A stretch of DNA of 64,000 nt, taken from the NCBI GenBank assembly GCA_963718615.1, contig OY970368.1, positions 5,952,001-6,016,000 of the forward strand, given 5' to 3'. Each line of letters begins with the position of its first letter. The first letter of the stretch is position 1. This document shows, in pieces, positions 36,890 to 47,609 of this stretch. Position numbers and translations under genes: made by a program. The stretch comes from an uncultured cyanobacterium (GTDB taxonomy: Bacteria; Cyanobacteriota; Cyanobacteriia; PCC-9006; JAAUQQ01). The notes under the pieces are model-generated. The model searched no databases. It had not been told where the DNA came from and saw nothing but the letters and a program-made list of their open reading frames with translations.

Positions 36890-38416
36890 ATGCAAGCTCT
36901 AGCCATGCCTATCATTGAAATTCAACAAGTTTCCAAGTCTTTGGGGGCTTTTTTGAACCCGCAAGAAATTCTTCGTGATATCAGTCTCACGCTTAACGCT
37001 GGCGAATTCGTCGTTCTCTCGGGTGAGAATGGCGCTGGTAAAAGTACGCTGATCAATCTTATTCTCGGCCTTTCAATCCCTCAAGAAGGAACTATTAAGT
37101 TGATGGGTCACTCTCCACAGAACCCTCAGGCTAAAACTGAATTAGGTGTTTTCTTTCAAGATTCTACATTCCCAAGAAACTTGAAGGTTCGAGAAGTCAT
37201 TGAACTGATTTCTAGTTATCACGCGACCCCTATGACAATGCCTCAGGTGGTCAAGAAATTCTCGATTCAAGATCTACTAGATCGCCCCGCCACTGAGCTT
37301 TCTGGAGGGCAGAAGAAATGGCTCCGCCTAGTCTTAGCTTTCGTGGGACAGCCTCAGCTTTTGATTCTGGATGAGCCTACCAGTGATATTGATGCGACTC
37401 GATACCAAGAATTCTGGCAGCATCTAACTGAATTTCATCAGCAAGGTGGCACTATTTTGATCGTGACCCATCGTCCAGAAGATTGGGTACAGCTTGAAAA
37501 GATCGCGACCCGCTCGATTCAACTCCAACGATTGACACCTGCTCTAATTGGGTCGCAGCTTAATGACGATGGGCGAATCCAGCGAGAATCCAGCATCGTC
37601 GAGCAAATCGATTCTGCTTCGCTTTTTACTAAACGCTCAGATTCTACTGTACAGAAACAGGCATTACTGAAAGAGCAGCCTCGCAGAGTTGACACTTTTG
37701 ATTCGATCGTAACTCAGTGCCGTATGGAGGTACTTCAGCTTCTGCGTACTCCAGTTTCTCTGGTCAGCACGCTGATTCTAATTGGCAGCGCTAGTAAACT
37801 GCCCCATACGGATAGCCAAGCCTATAGTCAATTTTTCATCGCTATCAGCACAATGCTTCTATTGATGCTTTGCTTAGATATTCTAGGGAAAAATGTCTCA
37901 CTTGAGCGACTAGAGCAGTGGTTCAAATTTGTTCGTACCACGCCACTCCCTTTAATGTCTTATCTTGCGGCTAAAGTCATCACTGCTTTTGGGATTGCGT
38001 CATTGAGTCTTGCAAGCATGTTTGCAGTTGCTAGATTCTTTGGGTACTTGCCAAAGGACTTCTCGGTATTACCGGTAGTGCTGAATCAGTTGATTTTTCT
38101 CTTTCCTTTCGCTGTATTGACATTGTGCCTGAGTTATTTGATCAATCCGAAAGGATATGACTCAGTCTCCAAGCTTCTGTTCCTGGGGGTGGCTGTTCCC
38201 TCAGCCTTGCCAGCAATGGGAATATCGCTGCCCAGTAAGCTGGAAACGGCTATTCATTTTTCGCCGTTTTATCACTATTTTCAATTAATCCGGGAATCAG
38301 CAAGCTTGTCTTTTGATCATCATCATTTTCTTCATGCTGCTTGGATGGTTTGGTGTGCGATCGCGTTCAGCTTGCTCGCTGTCTGGTCTTGTCAGCGCGA
38401 ACAGAAGACTGCGTAA
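36890..38416 (+). CDS. Fused ABC transporter (ATPase plus ABC-2-like permease)
   Basis: GENGAGKS, LSGGQ, LDEP, VTH; about 6 C-terminal TM helices. Confidence 0.88.
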   Translation: MQALAMPIIEIQQVSKSLGAFLNPQEILRDISLTLNAGEFVVLSGENGAGKSTLINLILGLSIPQEGTIKLMGHSPQNPQAKTELGVFFQDSTFPRNLKVREVIELISSYHATPMTMPQVVKKFSIQDLLDRPATELSGGQKKWLRLVLAFVGQPQLLILDEPTSDIDATRYQEFWQHLTEFHQQGGTILIVTHRPEDWVQLEKIATRSIQLQRLTPALIGSQLNDDGRIQRESSIVEQIDSASLFTKRSDSTVQKQALLKEQPRRVDTFDSIVTQCRMEVLQLLRTPVSLVSTLILIGSASKLPHTDSQAYSQFFIAISTMLLLMLCLDILGKNVSLERLEQWFKFVRTTPLPLMSYLAAKVITAFGIASLSLASMFAVARFFGYLPKDFSVLPVVLNQLIFLFPFAVLTLCLSYLINPKGYDSVSKLLFLGVAVPSALPAMGISLPSKLETAIHFSPFYHYFQLIRESASLSFDHHHFLHAAWMVWCAIAFSLLAVWSCQREQKTA

Positions 38417-38641: not shown

Positions 38642-39030
38642 GATCTAGCGAATCTGGATAAGGCTGACTTTTCTCAACTATTTAGATGCTGTCCGAAATA
38701 TTCAGGATGATGACTCTAAAGCCGAAGTATTAATGGAGCTAGCGAAGCTGGATAAGGCTGATTTTTCAGACATCCTGCAATTTATGGCCAAAAGCTCCCA
38801 ACAATCCGCAGTCGCATCCGCCCTCAGCCAAGCCCTTTCTGATTTCCCCTTTCAACCCCTCCCCCCTCCAAGACTGGCAAACCAGCCTCCACATCCTCGC
38901 CCACAACCAACGCGCCGATCTCATGCAAACCCTCCTCGTCCTCCTTCCCACCCTCACCCAACTCGGTGGCCCCACCGCAGGCCGAGCCATGACCCAAGCC
39001 CTCCAAACCATCTGCCAGCAGTGGCCCTAG
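38642..39030 (+). pseudogene. Frameshifted 3' fragment of a helical-repeat (NTPase-associated type) protein
   Basis: LA(N/K)LDKADFS repeat at 94-bp spacing; after a frameshift reads LHILAHNQRADLMQ...LGG...QQWP*. Confidence 0.6.
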
Positions 39031-39224
39031 GGGAAAATCGGACGTGTGAACGCGGAACACTGAAAAGAAGAACCATCGTCCCTCAACTAGAGAAGAAAGA
39101 AAAATATAGTACAAAAAGACTGCTGCATGGGATGGCGATCGAGTAGAAAAGGATATATTAAACTGGAGCTACCCAGACGAGGCACCGGATCATAAGCATT
39201 CAAGAACTCGAAGCCCAACTGCTC

Positions 39225-39383
39225 AATGAATTGATCGCCAAACAACCCAAACCAGCAGTACTCGATTGGCTCAATACTCAACCCAATCAGGATTTGTATC
39301 TATAGGGGGCTTTTACGCGGGTTACCCGGAATGAGAAAGATTTTGCTGGAACAGGTTTGACCATCCTCAATCCATGGACTTAA
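39225..39383 (+). pseudogene. Internally deleted VapC/PIN toxin
   Basis: ELIAKQPKPAVLDWL...LYL* joined to VTRNEKDFAGTGLTILNPW*. Confidence 0.7.
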
Positions 39384-39610
39384 ATCCAGCAGTCTCTCGC
39401 CAACCTTTCCTACACCAACTGGCAATCTCCCTGCACCTACTCGCCCACTGCAAACGCGCCGACCTCATGCAAGAGGTTTCATGGATAAATCGTCACCCGC
39501 AACCCAACCCCCAACGCCGCCATCCGCCCCAACAACGCCGCCGCCAGCTCCCGCAAATCCACCGCCGACACCAGATCCAAATAGATAGACGTGTCTGCCT
39601 GGATGTCTGG

Positions 39611-39790
39611 TCAATGGTGGGGGAGGATCAGTATTGCTGCCTTGAGGGAGTACTCAGCCCGCTTGGCCTTAATGGTCACGACCCAAATTCGATCCTCAAA
39701 TACCAAGAGGTCAATCAACTCCCTCACCAGAAATCCTTCATCTTCGGTGATGAGTTCTACCAAAACTCTCCGCAGTGCTCCGCCTATACC
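39611..39790 (-). pseudogene. Fragment of a PD-(D/E)xK, HsdR-N-like nuclease gene
   Basis: EDEGFLVRELIDLLVFEDRIWVVTIKAKRAEYSLK; degraded motif, truncated. Confidence 0.5.
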
Positions 39791-39999
39791 CGAAGAGTTA
39801 GGGGGTGGTGAAGGGTCACTTTGAACGATTTTGAACTGATAAAATAGAGTCATGCTAAAAGGAAGTGTCCTATCAATGCATGCTCAATTCGGGGAGAGTA
39901 CATCATGGCGGCAGATGCTCCCTATCCACTTTTTGTTCACAATTTAGATCAAATACTATATCTACAATCGTGTTTAGCAGATAGCCTGGGAGGCCGTAA

Positions 40000-41700: not shown

Positions 41701-42078
41701 CTAGGCAACGCCATAATTGGTGTAGGGACGTTTGGCGGGGGGCTGGAGGCCCAAGATAATATCTTCTTTGGGGACACCCATATTCACCAACACTGCTGCT
41801 GGGTCCTGTTCGGTTTTGTTTTCTTGGAGCCAGATTTTGCTGTCTTTCACTTGCAGATGAATGATACAGCGGTAAATACGATCGAATCCGCGCCAGCCGA
41901 TGTGCCACCATTGGTAGTGGCCTTGAATGGGATCGATGACTAGGTGGGTTTCTACGTCTGCTTGAGGGCGATCGTTGGCTGCGTAGTTCCGGATGACTTG
42001 CTCGGCTAGTTTTCGGTATTGGTTGCTTTTGTGGATGCTAGTCTCTTGGGCTAGTTTGTTCTGGGTTAGGCTATCCAT
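41701..42078 (-). CDS. XisI family protein
   Basis: GW....RIY.CIIH, KIWLQEN.TE, GVPKEDIILG. Confidence 0.9.
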   Translation of the reverse strand: MDSLTQNKLAQETSIHKSNQYRKLAEQVIRNYAANDRPQADVETHLVIDPIQGHYQWWHIGWRGFDRIYRCIIHLQVKDSKIWLQENKTEQDPAAVLVNMGVPKEDIILGLQPPAKRPYTNYGVA

Positions 42079-42082
42079 TTCT

Positions 42083-44224
42083 TTAACACCTCTCTTGTTC
42101 GATTTTTTCGAGGTCTTTGGCGGCTCCGAGTTGGGTGTAGAGTTGGTGGGCGGTTTGGTAGTGATGTTGGGCGAGGGTGGGGTTGTTTTTGGCGCGGTGG
42201 AGTTGGGCGAAATGCCAGTGAATTTCGGCGAGAAGTTGAGTCATTCCGAGCTGTTGGGTTTGAGTGAATGCGTCTTGAAGGAGTGTTTCAGCTAGCTCAA
42301 GATTGCCACGACCTAATTCGTTGGCTCCTCGATCGCTCGTAACCCAAGCAATACCCTGCCGATCGTCCAATTCTTCACTCAGTTGCAGGGATTGCCAATA
42401 GAGCCGTTCCGCCTCGTCCCAGTTGCCGCGATTGCGCTCGATGTCGCCGAGGACGCCCCAAACTGCTGCTATGCCGGAGCGATCGCCCAATTCTTCACTC
42501 AGTTGCAGGGATTGCCGAAAGAGCCGTTCGGCCTCGTCCCAGTTGCCGCGTTTGCGCTCGATGTCGCCCAGCACGCCCCAGGAAGATGCCATGCCGGAGC
42601 GATCGCCCAATTCTTCCTCAATTTGTAGGCATTGCCGATAGAGCCGTTCCGCCTCGTCCCAGTTGCCGCGCTTGCGTTCGATGTCGCCGAGGACACCCCA
42701 GGAGGTTGCCATGCCGGAGCGATCGCCCAATTCTTCCATCATTTGTAGAGCTTGCCGAAAGAGCCGTTCGGCCTCGTCCCAGTTGCCGCGTTTGCGCTCG
42801 ATGTCGCCCAGCACGCCCCAGGAAGATGCCATGCCGGAGCGATCGCCCAATTCTTCCTCAATTTGTAGGCATTGCCGATAGAGCCGTTCCGCCGCGTCCC
42901 AGTTGCCGCGATTGCGCTCGATGTCGCCGAGGGAGCCCCAGGAGGTTGCCATACCGGAGCGATCGCCCAATTCTTCCCTCAGTTGCAGGGATTGCCGATA
43001 GAGCCGTTCCGCCTCGTCCCAGTTGCCGCGATTGCGCTCGATGTCGCCGAGGGAGCCCCAGGAGGTTGCCATACCGGAGCGATCGCCCAATTCTTCGCTC
43101 AGTTGCAGGGATTGCCGATAGAGCCGTTCCGCCTCGTCCCAGTTGCCGCGATTGCGCTCGATGTCGCCGAGGACGCCCCAGGAGGTTGCCATGCCGGAGC
43201 GATCGCCCAATTCTTCCATCAGTTGCAGGGATTGCCGAAAGAGCCGTTCCGCCGCGTCCCAGTTGCCGCGCTTGCGCTCGATGTCGCCGAGGACACCCCA
43301 GGAAGATGCCATGCCGGAGCGATCGCCCAATTCTTCCCTCAGTTGCAGGGATTGCCGAAAGAGCCGTTCCGCCGCGTCCCAGTTGCCGCGTTTGCGTTCC
43401 ACATCACCCAGGCAGCCGAGACAACGGCTTTCCCCGGCGCGATCGCCTGCTTGCCGATGAAGCTGAATCGCTTTCTTCAAGACACTTTTAGCACTCTCCC
43501 AATGGCCTCGGTCCCGCTCGGTAAACCCCAGGTTTTGGTATAGGCTTGCCAGTAACGGCGAATCCGGTTCCGTTGCCAACAGATCATCCAAAGCCTGCCA
43601 TTCTTCCCGAGCGGTTTTTCCCAATTCCGATTGCTCATCGTCCAGAGGCGGGCGGATAATCACCACCTCCGGTTCAATTTCATAAACCTCCGTCGATCCC
43701 TGCCAATTCACCACTACCGGCGGCGTTTGAAACTCAAATAACGCATTCCCCCGCCAACTCCAAAAATCCGGAGAAGCAGTTGCCAAGGCATCGGCCACAG
43801 CATTCGACACCCACAGCACAATCGGACAAGCAAACGCCCGCAACGCCTCCCTCGTCCACTGCAACGAAAACAGCAACCGCTCTCGATCAGACTTCTCCTC
43901 CCCCAAGCGCAAATCCAGCAAATCCGCAGCCCCCAAGGCCGTCACCATCGAGCCACGTCCAAGAACCACGCCCTGGGTTTGTAGATCCACTAATCCCTGG
44001 CGCAAACTGGGATTTTTTCCACTGAACCGAACCCGATAACAATGAATTCCTTTCGCCGTTAGTTCTGCTTCGTATTGTTGCGTCCAGCGCTCTTGATCGA
44101 CTGGGCGATCGCACACCGCCACCAGCAAATTCAACTTACCATCACTCGCCGTAATCGATAAGATCAACCGCCGTAAGGCCCGTAAATTCGCCTGTTCTTC
44201 CTCAATGGATAGGGCTGAAAGCAT
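42083..44224 (-). CDS. TPR protein with N-terminal 'PDFWSWR' domain and 40-aa repeats
   Basis: Nine near-identical 40-aa TPR-like repeats; N-terminal domain has no Walker A. Confidence 0.9.
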   Translation of the reverse strand: MLSALSIEEEQANLRALRRLILSITASDGKLNLLVAVCDRPVDQERWTQQYEAELTAKGIHCYRVRFSGKNPSLRQGLVDLQTQGVVLGRGSMVTALGAADLLDLRLGEEKSDRERLLFSLQWTREALRAFACPIVLWVSNAVADALATASPDFWSWRGNALFEFQTPPVVVNWQGSTEVYEIEPEVVIIRPPLDDEQSELGKTAREEWQALDDLLATEPDSPLLASLYQNLGFTERDRGHWESAKSVLKKAIQLHRQAGDRAGESRCLGCLGDVERKRGNWDAAERLFRQSLQLREELGDRSGMASSWGVLGDIERKRGNWDAAERLFRQSLQLMEELGDRSGMATSWGVLGDIERNRGNWDEAERLYRQSLQLSEELGDRSGMATSWGSLGDIERNRGNWDEAERLYRQSLQLREELGDRSGMATSWGSLGDIERNRGNWDAAERLYRQCLQIEEELGDRSGMASSWGVLGDIERKRGNWDEAERLFRQALQMMEELGDRSGMATSWGVLGDIERKRGNWDEAERLYRQCLQIEEELGDRSGMASSWGVLGDIERKRGNWDEAERLFRQSLQLSEELGDRSGIAAVWGVLGDIERNRGNWDEAERLYWQSLQLSEELDDRQGIAWVTSDRGANELGRGNLELAETLLQDAFTQTQQLGMTQLLAEIHWHFAQLHRAKNNPTLAQHHYQTAHQLYTQLGAAKDLEKIEQERC
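42365..43444. repeat. Tandem array, 9 x 120 bp, inside the TPR gene
   Basis: Sequence recurs every two 60-nt lines; one HIP1 per unit. Confidence 0.95.
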
Positions 44225-44236
44225 TGCAGGCTCCCC

Positions 44237-45529
44237 CTAAATTAACTTGCGTCGTCTGAGCAAATCCTTCACAATCGGATGCAAGTCGTACCATAGATCG
44301 CCATTTTCATACTCCAAAACCATCAACCCATGGAGCATCTCCACAAAAGCATCTCCCTCGGCCCGTTCTAGGGTTTGATAAACCTGGGCTAGCAAGTCAT
44401 AATGGGTGCGAATTTGTCGGGCAAAATCATTGCGGAGATTGGCCACCGCTGCGGTCAAAATGCCATCATCCACTTGAATAGCAGTCCGCTCCGGCTCAAT
44501 CTCCAACTGCACCATACATTCCGTACAGCACTCCCGCCCAATCCGCACCAACTCCCGCATCACCCCACCACTTAGCAGGGCAATCTTACGCGATATTTCC
44601 GGTGCCAAAAGTCCCTCGGGAAACCGTTTTTCCAAAATTGTTTCAAACAGTTTCAGACTTTTTTCAATGGGCTCAGCCTCAGGATTGTGACAGTCCTCCT
44701 GACCAAAAAACTTCGCGACAGGAAAGAGTTGAGGACGTACGACCCCCTCAGAAGTTAAAGCCCCCATGATCCGAGGTTCCTGGAGCGCCGAAACCGGAAT
44801 CGTAAACACGATTTTGAATCCCGGTGAAAACAACGATTTGAGATTATTGCGATAGATCGGCTCAACTACACTCGGATCCAACTTGTCCAAGTCATCAATA
44901 ATGACCAATACGGGTTTTTGCGTCTTCCCCTGAATTGAAGCGGCGAGGCGATCGAGATTCCCCACCAGCTCTGAAATTCTGCGCTCATAGGTGCGCTCTA
45001 GCTCTTGCCGAAAGGCTTGCTCCCGTTGCAATTTCAGCGTGACAAATTTGAAGAGATCATCACCCCCCAAACCCATTTCAGACTTGGTTTCCGCTTCTTG
45101 GGTTTCTTTCCGCTGGGTAAACATCCACCCCAACAGCGATTTGCGAATGTCCTCAGCCACTGGGATATTCACCTTTGTGGCTTGGCTGAGGAGCATGATG
45201 GCGATCGCATACAAGATATTCACATGACTAACATCCGACATTTCGATCAAATCTGAGATCGAAAAGCGCACCACGAAATATTTTTTTTGCATTTCCGTGG
45301 CAAACTGCTTTAGCAACGTAGACTTCCCACAGCCCCGATGCCCCGCAAACACCAGTTTCCCGTCCTTTTCAGACGCCTCCACCTCTCGCCGTAGCCGCAC
45401 CAAAACTTCGCGGCCATATTCCACTCGGAACCGTTCAATATCTCTGGGTTCTAACAGCGGGAATAAATCTAAGTCACGGTAAGTCGCTTGCAAGCGCTCC
45501 AATAGCTCTTGGTTCATAGCGATGGGCAA
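44237..45529 (-). CDS. P-loop ATPase (AAA+/STAND-like)
   Basis: Walker A GHRGCGKS, Walker B VIIDDLDK, SGGVMRE motif. Confidence 0.88.
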   Translation of the reverse strand: MPIAMNQELLERLQATYRDLDLFPLLEPRDIERFRVEYGREVLVRLRREVEASEKDGKLVFAGHRGCGKSTLLKQFATEMQKKYFVVRFSISDLIEMSDVSHVNILYAIAIMLLSQATKVNIPVAEDIRKSLLGWMFTQRKETQEAETKSEMGLGGDDLFKFVTLKLQREQAFRQELERTYERRISELVGNLDRLAASIQGKTQKPVLVIIDDLDKLDPSVVEPIYRNNLKSLFSPGFKIVFTIPVSALQEPRIMGALTSEGVVRPQLFPVAKFFGQEDCHNPEAEPIEKSLKLFETILEKRFPEGLLAPEISRKIALLSGGVMRELVRIGRECCTECMVQLEIEPERTAIQVDDGILTAAVANLRNDFARQIRTHYDLLAQVYQTLERAEGDAFVEMLHGLMVLEYENGDLWYDLHPIVKDLLRRRKLI

Positions 45530-47164: not shown

Positions 47165-47609
47165 GGAGGGGGAGTCATCGACAAAGGGTATTCATCTTCC
47201 ATGAAAGCGAAAATATTACGAAATGTAAAATAAACAAACCCCGAGCAGTCCTCTAAGCTGCTCAAGACTTGCAGGGAACCCCAGCTACGCGAGAAAAGCG
47301 AGAAGGATTGAGGAAGTCGATCTATCGGCATCCCGGAACTTTATGGAGCGACTTGACACCGGCTGAATGTATAGAAAAGTGGATGTATGAGCAACGAGAC
47401 CCAGGAGAATGATAGAAGATTTAAGACGACTCTCTCTTTAGCCTGATAGAACTGCCCCAACTTCTCCCCGCAGCGGGTAGACCCTGGATCCAAAATCACC
47501 GAAGATAGACCAAAGGTTCAAGCTGAACAATCGTTGCGGTCCCTACTGCAGGCGTGAGCGGCGTCCATTGAACCACCAGACGACATCTATCTAGGAGATA
47601 TCAAACGGT

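Follow-up and report, generated by a model that had tools for sequence, protein, structure and literature searches.

The locus and its two genes

The window analyzed here is a 64,000-nucleotide stretch of DNA from an uncultured cyanobacterium (contig OY970368.1, positions 5,952,001 to 6,016,000) and sits in a complete 6.1-Mb genome (G000:C1:5952001-6016000). Wherever a source is named for relatives of its genes, that source is a cyanobacterium. Positions 42,083 to 45,529 of this window hold two genes on the minus strand, one encoding a P-loop ATPase and the next a protein that opens with an alpha/beta domain of about 170 residues, called N-dom here, and continues into a long array of TPR repeats (Table 1). 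An earlier note, made from the letters alone, had likened the pair to a split NLR-like system, in which an active ATPase is joined to an inactive NTPase-like TPR sensor and which lies in an accessory hotspot. Its description of the genes themselves is accurate. The motifs it quoted are present in the ATPase (GHRGCGKS, residues 63-70; IIDDLDK, 210-216; SGGVMRE, 320-326) and in the TPR protein (LQWTRE, 121-126; PIVLW, 134-138; PDFWSWR, 152-158), and both open reading frames (ORFs) lie on the minus strand, with the ATPase 12 bp upstream of its partner. The database copy of the ATPase (P0001) is 426 amino acids long and M5 is nearly invariant among relatives; on this sequence evidence, translation probably begins at the ATG at 45517, which would make the protein 426 amino acids long. 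Residue numbers of the ATPase nevertheless follow the 430-amino-acid ORF throughout.

An intact ATPase of the ORC/Cdc6, STAND, and KAP neighborhood

The ATPase opens with an N-terminal helix and a P-loop core that carries a helical insert (about residues 120-205); a lid of helices and a C terminus resembling a winged helix follow. It ends at residue 430 without repeats, the TPRs being on the product of the next gene. Both nucleotide-binding motifs are intact, with G63, H64, G66, C67, G68, K69, S70, and T71 of Walker A invariant and the IDDLD of Walker B kept in 21 of 21 ATPase sequences. Two Pfam models are matched above threshold, AAA_16 (34.5 bits, cut-off 32.6) and KAP_NTPase (25.7 bits, cut-off 20; residues 66-222). 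NACHT (25.4 bits) falls under its cut-off of 26.7, and nSTAND_NTPase5 (20.2, cut-off 34), nSTAND3 (17.3, cut-off 27.2), and the NCBIfam "Sll1717 family" (33 bits, cut-off 75) are likewise sub-threshold, while NB-ARC is not among the 14 Pfam families matched.

Fold comparison with VIA places the protein in the same neighborhood. Cdc6/Orc1 is matched with a Z score of 12.7 (2qby_B; 287 residues aligned between 14 and 421, lid and winged helix included), followed by RdrA (Z 12.7), TnsC (Z 12.4), BrxC (9zll_A, Z 11.4; 9zdx_A, Z 10.8), and NRC2 (Z 11.2), with NLRs and Apaf-1-type proteins at Z 10.2-11.2; 271-283 residues were aligned with the archaeal ATPase_2 proteins 2qen and 2fna. The insert between Walker A and Walker B is charged and helical, and it is not a membrane segment, because the highest Kyte-Doolittle mean over 19 residues is 1.41 in the whole protein (0.83 within the insert). 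The ATPase is thus classified as an intact AAA+ protein of the ORC/Cdc6-STAND-KAP neighborhood without a sensor or effector domain, and since the Pfam scan finds no effector domain in either protein of the pair, the statement of the earlier note that none is evident still stands. In a related metagenome protein of 998 amino acids (P0361; 36% identity to the ATPase across 98% of the query), the ATPase module is C-terminal, behind about 570 residues without a Pfam match, and N-dom is absent.

A degenerate AAA+ core at the head of the TPR protein

The first 170 residues of the TPR protein were suggested to be an NTPase-like domain that lacks Walker A, with Foldseek proposed as a check, and at the level of the fold this is what structural comparison recovers: a five-stranded alpha/beta/alpha core of AAA+ type, closest to AAA+, STAND, and ORC/Cdc6 proteins. 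The AlphaFold model of N-dom, built from 40 sequences, has a predicted local distance difference test (pLDDT) score of 81.5 and shows a helix followed by four beta-alpha units and a fifth strand (strands at 32-37, 61-66, 92-97, 134-139, and 162-164). The P-loop position is taken by three residues between beta1 and alpha1, the invariant C38-D39 among them. The Walker A pattern occurs in 0 of 28 aligned N-doms, and among the 150 top representatives of the family, 148 have no such pattern within their first 200 residues. What is conserved instead are CD (38-39), YExE (51-54), PS (72-73), LQWTRE (121-126), W138, and PDFWSWR (152-158).

The listed Foldseek matches (E values of 1.3e-3 to 2.4e-2) are all AAA+/P-loop proteins except for one de novo design and include clamp-loader subunits, ORC/Cdc6, DnaA, IstB, and the AAA-like domain of Sir3. 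VIA, which is independent of Foldseek, gave TnsC (Z 11.1), Cdc6/Orc1 (Z 10.2), RdrA (Z 10.1), and the STAND module of Avs5 (Z 9.9), with values over both runs of 11.1-11.3 for TnsC and 10.6 for ORC; all 50 chains listed per run are AAA+/P-loop proteins. When the Foldseek matches were re-aligned to N-dom, 367 of 976 chains reached a Z score of at least 8.

At the sequence level the domain forms a family of its own. Pfam assigns no consistent family to 28 N-dom sequences (the best, DUF359, in 3 of the 28), the N-dom profile finds nothing below E 3.8 among Protein Data Bank sequences, and the PHROGs search gave no match. The ESM Atlas returned unnamed cyanobacterial clusters only, which are likely the N-dom family itself. 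Among 1.84 billion representatives, the profile matches 186 clusters at E values of 1e-30 or lower and 439 at 1e-10 or lower, and the domain is N-terminal in nearly all of the 150 representatives listed.

In AAA+ proteins the arginine finger sits between alpha4 and beta5 (Box VII; the SRC motif of clamp loaders). R158, the last residue of PDFWSWR, occupies this position in the model, seven residues before the end of N-dom, and judging from this topological placement, it probably acts as an arginine finger.

The two genes travel together across cyanobacteria

In all 36 orthologous loci fetched, some of which come from closely related or identical genomes, N-dom is encoded immediately after the ATPase and in the same orientation. 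A broader survey covered 401 cyanobacterial genomes, an even sample of the phylum comprising 155 genera. The ATPase was found in 53 of these genomes (30 of 155 genera), N-dom in 51, and both in 50, at 1-4 copies per carrier genome; the search detected no pair in about 87% of the genomes, among them whole families (0 of 29 genomes in f17). Of 63 N-dom matches, 58 are preceded by the ATPase in the same orientation, and three of the five unpaired matches lie at contig ends. The three genomes with an ATPase but no N-dom match contribute two fragments and one relative of 29% identity, and in the only genome with N-dom but no ATPase, the N-dom match lies 733 bp from a contig end. The median spacing between the tblastn matches of the two genes is about 33 bp, and in many orthologous loci the genes overlap or abut (for example, as overlapping ORFs in L087-L090). 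The adjacency of ATPase and N-dom is far from chance, and the two proteins can be said to form an obligate gene pair.

In-frame stops are found in 3 of 64 ATPase matches: TAG in L091 (G154:C1) and TGA in L093 (G226:C1) and in G282:C219. The ATPase of L093 is broken into two ORFs (125 and 288 amino acids), and the partner in L091 into a 343-amino-acid protein and a separate TPR ORF of 268 amino acids. Because of these stops and split genes, the pair appears to be dispensable in some genomes.

Diverged pairs and partners with their own NTPase module

The genome that holds the window encodes two further ATPases with 25-28% identity to the one described above. Downstream of each, in the same orientation, lies a gene for a protein with an N-dom-like N terminus, DFWxWR motif included, and comparison of these N termini with the N-dom profile by hhalign gave probabilities of 96.7% (E 4.4e-10) and 95.4% (E 1.8e-8). 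Judged from the sequences of these diverged paralogous pairs, the coupling of ATPase and N-dom is ancient. A DDE transposase adjoins the first of the two operons (L098), and a 761-amino-acid TPR protein follows the second (L099).

The partner in the second paralogous operon carries a NACHT module between N-dom and the TPRs. A similar architecture is seen within the orthologous family, in which proteins of 1113-1247 amino acids join N-dom, NB-ARC, and TPR. In one locus (L086) a partner of 976 amino acids, 79% identical to one such protein and with a Walker A motif at residue 422, stands directly after an ATPase orthologue. In these proteins N-dom occupies the place of the effector or adaptor domains of NB-ARC/NACHT-TPR STAND proteins.

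These forms bear directly on the proposal of a split NLR, which is only partly right: the ATPase is kept even beside partners with an NB-ARC or NACHT module of their own (L086, L099). Since a standalone ATPase is retained together with a full STAND partner, it is not simply a nucleotide-binding oligomerization domain (NOD) that has been split from its sensor. N-dom looks like an adaptor or cap, not like half of a split NOD, and a chain of sensor, pseudo-AAA+ adaptor, and ATPase describes the pair better than an NLR cut in two.

A predicted interface on the ATP-site face

Complex prediction, which the earlier note had called for, combined the ATPase alignment with the N-dom alignment in three runs beside three controls, and yielded a confidently predicted interface. 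The runs scored 0.83, 0.82, and 0.83 and the best control 0.00; of 157 solved complexes, 116 attain the mark used for calibration, as do 2 of 215 mismatched pairs. The runs share at least 93% of their contacts, and the partner pLDDT is at least 83.

On the ATPase the predicted interface comprises the helix 13-23, P-loop residues 65-66, residues 90-97, K216, and the segments 325-343 (lid), 361-374, and 397-402. The contacts with the lowest expected errors are those of the lid helix (325, 329, 332-333, 335-337, 339-340, and 343), which is the core of the predicted interface. On N-dom it comprises the N-terminal helix 15-31, the LQWTRE region 122-129, and residues 144-164 with PDFWSWR, the motif contacts being 122, 123, and 126 in LQWTRE and 152-153, 155-157, and 159-162 in the PDFWSWR stretch. 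The predicted contact surfaces coincide with conservation on both sides. At a conservation level of at least 90%, 29 of 36 interface residues of the ATPase are conserved versus 44% of residues elsewhere (one-sided Fisher p 1.6e-5), as are 11 of 28 interface residues of N-dom versus 17% elsewhere (p 0.011).

Table 1. Coordinates of the ATPase and N-dom-TPR gene pair, its motifs and domains, the adjoining XisI-family gene, and the two paralogous operons of the same genome (positions refer to the window unless a contig is named)
Feature	Position	Strand	Basis or remark
Active ATPase gene	44237..45529	minus	ORF list; 430-amino-acid ORF, TTG start
Walker A GHRGCGKST, residues 63-71	45317..45343	minus	read from sequence
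Walker B VLVIIDDLDK, residues 207-216	44882..44911	minus	read from sequence
Lid helix SGGVMRELVRIGRECCTECMVQLE, residues 320-343	44501..44572	minus	almost wholly invariant columns
Intergenic spacer, 12 bp	44225..44236	minus	GGGGAG ribosome-binding site just before the ATG of the TPR gene
N-dom + TPR protein gene	42083..44224	minus	ORF list and Pfam; 713 amino acids, ATG start
N-dom, residues 1-170	43715..44224	minus	AlphaFold model, Foldseek, VIA
LQWTRE, residues 121-126, helix alpha3	43847..43864	minus	invariant or nearly so
PDFWSWR, residues 152-158, between alpha4 and beta5	43751..43771	minus	conserved; R158 invariant
Low-confidence linker, residues 171-225	43550..43714	minus	pLDDT <50 from residue 178
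Nine near-identical 40-amino-acid TPR-pair repeats, residues 260-619	42360..43447	minus	repeat table
XisI-family gene	41701-42078	minus	Pfam E 4.6e-36; starts 4 bp after the TPR stop
Paralogous operon 1	G000:C1:3190459-3193807 (L098:5459-8807)		N-dom-like + TPR_1-type repeats, 665 amino acids
Paralogous operon 2	G000:C1:3119536-3124640 (L099:3536-8640)		N-dom-like + NACHT (299-475) + TPR, 1270 amino acids

The TPR array

N-dom is joined by a linker to the repeats. Pfam detects no family in residues 1-175; its matches to TPR families begin at about residues 195-225, with TPR_12 (278 bits) and TPR_10 (199 bits) above their cut-offs, so that a long TPR array does follow the N-terminal domain, as had been read from the sequence. 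At the DNA level the array appears as a tandem repeat with a period of 120 bp, 8.6 copies, and 91% matches, and its length varies between loci. The G+C content is 0.58 across the repeat array, compared with 0.45-0.50 at 34-41 kb and about 0.55 elsewhere in the window.

Genomic surroundings

The upstream flank of the pair in the window is a carotenoid oxygenase of the RPE65 family, and farther neighbors include a ferric-reductase-like gene, a transketolase-like gene, a Uma2 gene, and valS. Downstream lies the XisI-family gene, for which a tblastn search of the whole window found no XisH partner (best E 0.65). In one other locus, an XisH-XisI pair stands directly downstream of the orthologous pair (L007:11140-11879). 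Scans for promoters and terminators were at chance level (4 versus 3.2 expected and 3 versus 5.0 expected, respectively).

At 26 other loci the neighbors differ and are mostly housekeeping genes. The 148 neighboring proteins scanned there (30 + 118) include no MoxR, vWA, PglZ, or nuclease partner, and no third gene is conserved alongside the pair. For comparison, control loci were taken 50-300 kb away on the same contigs and genomes, with three genes on each side and the same scan. Counting Uma2, caspase, toxin-antitoxin, transposase, CRISPR, restriction-modification, and similar families as conflict or mobile genes, with labels assigned from recall, such genes occur within three genes of 9 of 18 pair loci and of 11 of 18 control loci (12 with one borderline case). 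The idea of an accessory hotspot or a link to defense loci finds no backing in this comparison, small as the numbers are. In PADLOC-DB 2.0 (2023), the best matches of the ATPase are VakA (E 2.6e-6 over the 42 residues 58-99) and mad8 (E 9.2e-6), both at the level of the P-loop, and the TPR protein matches generic "TPR" models only.

In three loci of two families, an AAA gene (PF00004 with AAA_lid_3) and an SH3_3 gene stand just upstream of the pair (L080:7110-8648, L083:8092-9606, and L085:7421-8935). Because the other 15 loci do not have them, they probably reflect shared synteny and are not a component of the system. Caspase-domain proteins, one of them fused to FGE-sulfatase, are encoded a few genes away in two loci (L006:3656-5653 and L084:12990-15134), and a caspase gene is also present at one control locus (L105).

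The genomes of the same family are fragmented metagenome-assembled genomes, 62-93% complete, in which the carotenoid-oxygenase and transketolase-like genes are on different contigs. In the window a stretch of about 105 bp between these two genes (47343-47447) has at least six other copies in the genome at 72-73% identity and is a dispersed short repeat. A 41-bp segment upstream of the ferric-reductase-like gene (39900-39940) recurs at least seven times in the genome at 84-89% identity. Between about 34000 and 41000, the window also holds a fused ABC ATPase-permease (36890-38416) and two small hydrophobic-looking ORFs without a Pfam match; at 38733-39811 lie Pro/Arg-rich ORFs, likewise without a Pfam match, that may not be genes.

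Comparison with known systems

When the pair is placed beside systems of known structure, BrxB:BrxC of type I BREX appears to be the closest solved analogue and, by its likeness, a better analogy than a split NLR. VIA aligns N-dom with chain G of 9zll over 132 residues (Z 8.6, root-mean-square deviation 3.2 A), and as this chain has 189 residues and the complex consists of BrxC(1-551), BrxB, and PglZ(1-98), the chain is BrxB by elimination. As reported in PMC13326643 (NAR 2026), the crystal complex contains dimeric BrxC(1-551), full-length BrxB, and PglZ(1-98), and the inactivated AAA+ domain of BrxB uses the BrxC-BrxC interface to bind BrxC, with ATP in between. The same report (PMC13326643) describes how R182 of BrxB substitutes for the arginine finger R330 of BrxC, how bound BrxB excludes a further BrxC subunit, how the ATPase activity of BrxC(1-551) rises about 4-fold with BrxB, and how an interface mutant loses restriction and keeps methylation. 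In a second study (PMC12839542), BrxB is characterized as a compact, fast-evolving iSTAND without Walker motifs or a helical bundle, which is fused to effectors in other BREX types.

N-dom likewise is a compact AAA+ core of about 170-190 amino acids without Walker A, Walker B, or a C-terminal helical bundle, and its predicted interface (P-loop, the neighbor of Walker B, and the lid), together with an invariant arginine, R158, near the C terminus, would fit the precedent of R182. The two systems differ in other respects. No PglZ, PglX, BrxA, or BrxL is found among the window neighbors or the 148 neighbor proteins of the 26 loci; the ATPase has 430 amino acids, in contrast to the approximately 1200-1300 of BrxC; and where BrxB binds PglZ, N-dom is fused to TPRs or to NB-ARC/NACHT and TPRs. 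BrxB and N-dom share about 10% identity when aligned by structure, and no similarity between them can be detected from sequence.

Predicted conflict systems offer two further points of reference. Kaur, Iyer, Burroughs, and Aravind (2021, eLife; PMC8195603) describe nSTAND2 as a mobile operon whose two genes encode one intact, active STAND and one eroded STAND, both with a conserved arginine and predicted to form a hetero-multimer. The present pair also couples one active with one eroded module. However, the eroded nSTAND2 partner, as described there, is a full STAND of about 320 amino acids with a helical part and fused to GT4 or HEPN, whereas N-dom is a core of about 170 amino acids, fused to TPRs and without an effector. 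The part of the nSTAND2 supplementary alignment that was compared shows no evident likeness to N-dom, as judged without a profile comparison. The iSTAND and iSTAND2 modules are, according to Kaur et al. (2020; PMC7159879) and PMC8195603, inactive STAND modules that form non-catalytic parts of NTPase-regulated vWA-MoxR ternary systems, concentrated, in the case of iSTAND (PMC7159879), in cyanobacteria and other multicellular bacteria. Those systems join a MoxR ATPase with a vWA protein that carries effectors, whereas the partner ATPase here is of ORC/Cdc6-STAND-KAP type, and no MoxR or vWA Pfam family is found among the window neighbors or the 148 neighboring proteins.

A NOD-like module combined with a TPR array is shared with single-chain STAND and NLR-TPR sensors (Avs, bNACHT, NB-ARC-TPR, and MalT-type proteins), and VIA comparison of the ATPase with NRC2, ZAR1, Dark, Apaf-1, Avs3, and the STAND-TPR protein 6mfv gave Z scores of 9.5-11.2. 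Unlike in these proteins, the NOD-like ATPase and the TPRs of the pair are on separate chains, and the TPR chain carries a dead AAA+ core.

At the level of the fold, the pair also recalls the AAA+ heteromers of replication and silencing (the delta and delta-prime subunits of the clamp loader with gamma, ORC, and Sir3), in which a degenerate AAA+ subunit packs against an active one. In the clamp loader, the delta-prime subunit supplies an arginine in trans. The fold matches of N-dom include Sir3, ORC subunits, and chains C/D of the E. coli clamp-loader entries 1jqj and 1jr3, which we take to be the delta subunit. The likeness goes no further than the fold, as those machines are essential, have a fixed stoichiometry, and lack repeat sensors.

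Finally, the ATPase passes the Pfam model of KAP (PF07693), has an IDDLD-type Walker B, and carries an insert between Walker A and Walker B, and some sources name its relatives "KAP family P-loop domain protein". A hallmark of the KAP family is the presence of transmembrane helices inserted in the P-loop domain. The insert of the ATPase differs in having no transmembrane helix, as its low hydropathy (maximum 0.83) indicates.

A heteromeric nucleotide switch as the preferred reading

Taken together, we consider it fairly probable that the pair encodes two subunits of a heteromeric nucleotide switch of AAA+/STAND type, in which N-dom docks on the ATPase, caps it, and probably tunes it. The first subunit would be the catalytically intact ORC/Cdc6-, STAND-, and KAP-like ATPase with its core, lid, and winged helix, and the second would open with the dead AAA+ core of about 170 residues. 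N-dom may dock on the ATP-site face of the ATPase in the manner of a neighboring AAA+ subunit, touching the P-loop, the lid helix, and the residue that follows Walker B, and by doing so could cap that face against further self-association of the ATPase. The invariant R158 would probably be presented to the bound nucleotide and thereby tune ATP turnover. The TPR array could then serve as the part that binds a ligand or client, such that ligand binding would be coupled to the nucleotide state of the ATPase. By analogy, the action of BrxB on BrxC in BREX may be a model for the pair. The analysis shows the fold, the loss of motifs, the strict pairing, the paralogous pairs, and a predicted interface on conserved motifs; physical binding, the role of the arginine finger, capping, and any biological output are inferences.

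Several points weigh against the heteromeric switch. R158 is outside the listed contacts of the predicted complex, which was modeled without nucleotide. The complex score is the model's own confidence, and because a similar complex, 9zll, has been solved, the high score may partly reflect learned AAA+ packing; identity to the 9zll complex is only about 10%. The overlap of interface and conservation is not fully independent evidence, because the alignments include co-occurring pairs, and one of these alignments (A1) is limited to relatives of at least 60% identity. The predicted model of the ATPase is of moderate quality only (pLDDT 66.8; predicted template modeling score, 0.48). The comparison of N-dom with the ATPase core by hhalign gave a probability of 0.1%, and because no sequence relation is detected, there is no sequence evidence that N-dom is a decayed duplicate of its partner. 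N-dom is strongly conserved, unlike the fast-evolving BrxB. Two true orphan N-doms without an adjacent ATPase exist (734 amino acids in G306:C118 and 1364 amino acids in G077:C27). No fusion of ATPase and N-dom was found among proteins of 754-2150 amino acids, where only two longer relatives of the ATPase turned up (E 1e-10 or lower), neither with TPRs or N-dom; such an absence is weak evidence. Lastly, no output or effector was identified for the pair.

Alternative explanations

The physiological context in which such a switch would act can be approached from two sides. A role in surveillance or conflict is plausible, albeit tentatively so, and the same holds for its anti-phage or abortive-infection form as an NLR-like system, in which the TPR array would sense a phage protein and N-dom would recruit or switch the ATPase as the executor (for example, as a nucleic-acid-bound or ATP-consuming oligomer). 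Such a role would add biology to the heteromeric switch and would not replace its mechanism. It is consistent with the patchy distribution of the pair (53 of 401 genomes, 30 of 155 genera, with 1-4 diverged copies per genome), with its decay (in-frame stops in 3 of 64 ATPase matches; split genes in L091 and L093), with the position of N-dom where NB-ARC/NACHT-TPR STANDs have their effector or adaptor, and with a near-identical, recently amplified repeat array that differs in length from locus to locus. The BrxB:BrxC analogue belongs to a defense system, the named sources of the family are mostly filamentous cyanobacteria, and inactive STANDs recur in predicted conflict systems of multicellular bacteria, as presented in PMC7159879 and PMC8195603. 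The weak or generic PADLOC matches, the lack of any PHROGs match for N-dom, and the lack of a conserved third gene or an effector domain point the other way, as does the frequency of conflict genes at pair loci (9 of 18 versus 11, or 12 with one borderline, of 18 controls, in a small sample); moreover, nine near-identical repeats do not resemble a surface differentiated for specific binding. A role outside immunity, as a cellular regulator or an assembly factor, is possible but doubtful. Here the TPR scaffold would present a host client, such as a protein complex or a signaling partner, to the AAA+ switch, as in MalT- and AfsR-type STANDs and TPR assembly factors. This could account for flanks that are mostly housekeeping and lineage specific (ndhCKJ, rbcLX, the yidC region, a PBP-like gene with a Ser/Thr kinase, and glycosyltransferases; in the window, the carotenoid oxygenase, the transketolase-like gene, and valS), for the missing excess of conflict genes over controls, for the absence of an effector domain, and for the strong conservation of both proteins, in which they depart from BrxB. 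A core function is nonetheless argued against by the failure to find the pair in about 87% of the genomes searched and in any of 29 genomes of family f17. Several diverged paralogous pairs per genome, some of them pseudogenized, sit poorly with a regulator as well, and no DNA-binding output domain or client is identifiable.

Two further explanations would replace the proposed mechanism. It is very improbable that the genes form a toxin-antitoxin-like pair, one product of which, perhaps the ATPase, is harmful when free and restrained by the other. The tight operon with overlapping or abutting genes, the extensive predicted interface over the ATP site, and the toxin-antitoxin and XisI/XisH genes near some loci could be read in this way; the sizes of the proteins (430 and 340-980 amino acids) and the long repeat array are, however, unlike known toxin-antitoxin pairs, and neither Pfam nor PADLOC matches a toxin-antitoxin family. 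Orphan N-dom genes also exist without the ATPase, and the ATPase matches without N-dom comprise only two fragments, one relative of 29% identity, and two at contig ends. It is scarcely credible that the genes are mere neighbors and that N-dom is a generic Rossmann-like alpha/beta domain whose likeness to NTPases has no functional meaning. The Foldseek E values are marginal, none being 1e-3 or lower, Z scores of 8-11 are common for frequent folds, and N-dom has no sequence-level link to any NTPase. Yet 58 of 63 matches are paired, the pairing is kept in paralogues at 25% identity, all 50 chains per VIA run are AAA+/P-loop proteins, and the complex scores 0.83 versus 0.00 for controls, with an interface that falls on the invariant motifs.

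A bolder extension of the heteromeric switch can be formulated, which we regard as unlikely. N-dom would then be an undescribed BrxB-like pseudo-AAA+ adaptor through which TPR and NB-ARC/NACHT-TPR receptors recruit, cap, and fire the ATPase as their output arm, and the pairs would constitute a new family in defense or cell fate among filamentous cyanobacteria. If this is true, it would amount to NLR-type surveillance with an AAA+ switch as the effector and an arginine finger in trans, without an enzyme or a pore.

Significance

Within a limited library and set of search terms, no description of the pair of ATPase and N-dom-TPR protein was found in the literature. The analysis names a sizeable family that no Pfam model covers and proposes for it a role that can be tested; the two invariant motifs of this family are otherwise unexplained. 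Should neither the proposed mechanism nor a phage phenotype prove true, the pair would stand as a conserved accessory operon. If binding and the role of the arginine finger are true, the pair would offer a small, tractable model of how a pseudo-ATPase caps and tunes an active one, and if a phage phenotype is true, a defense system without a classical effector would be added to those known. The combination of an active ATPase with an inactivated AAA+ or STAND domain is emerging as a recurrent device in bacterial immunity, as in BrxB:BrxC, iSTAND, and nSTAND2. With the cyanobacterial pair, this device would extend to a minimal version made of two genes, whose dead domain is joined directly to a TPR sensor or, in some loci, to a complete NB-ARC or NACHT receptor instead.

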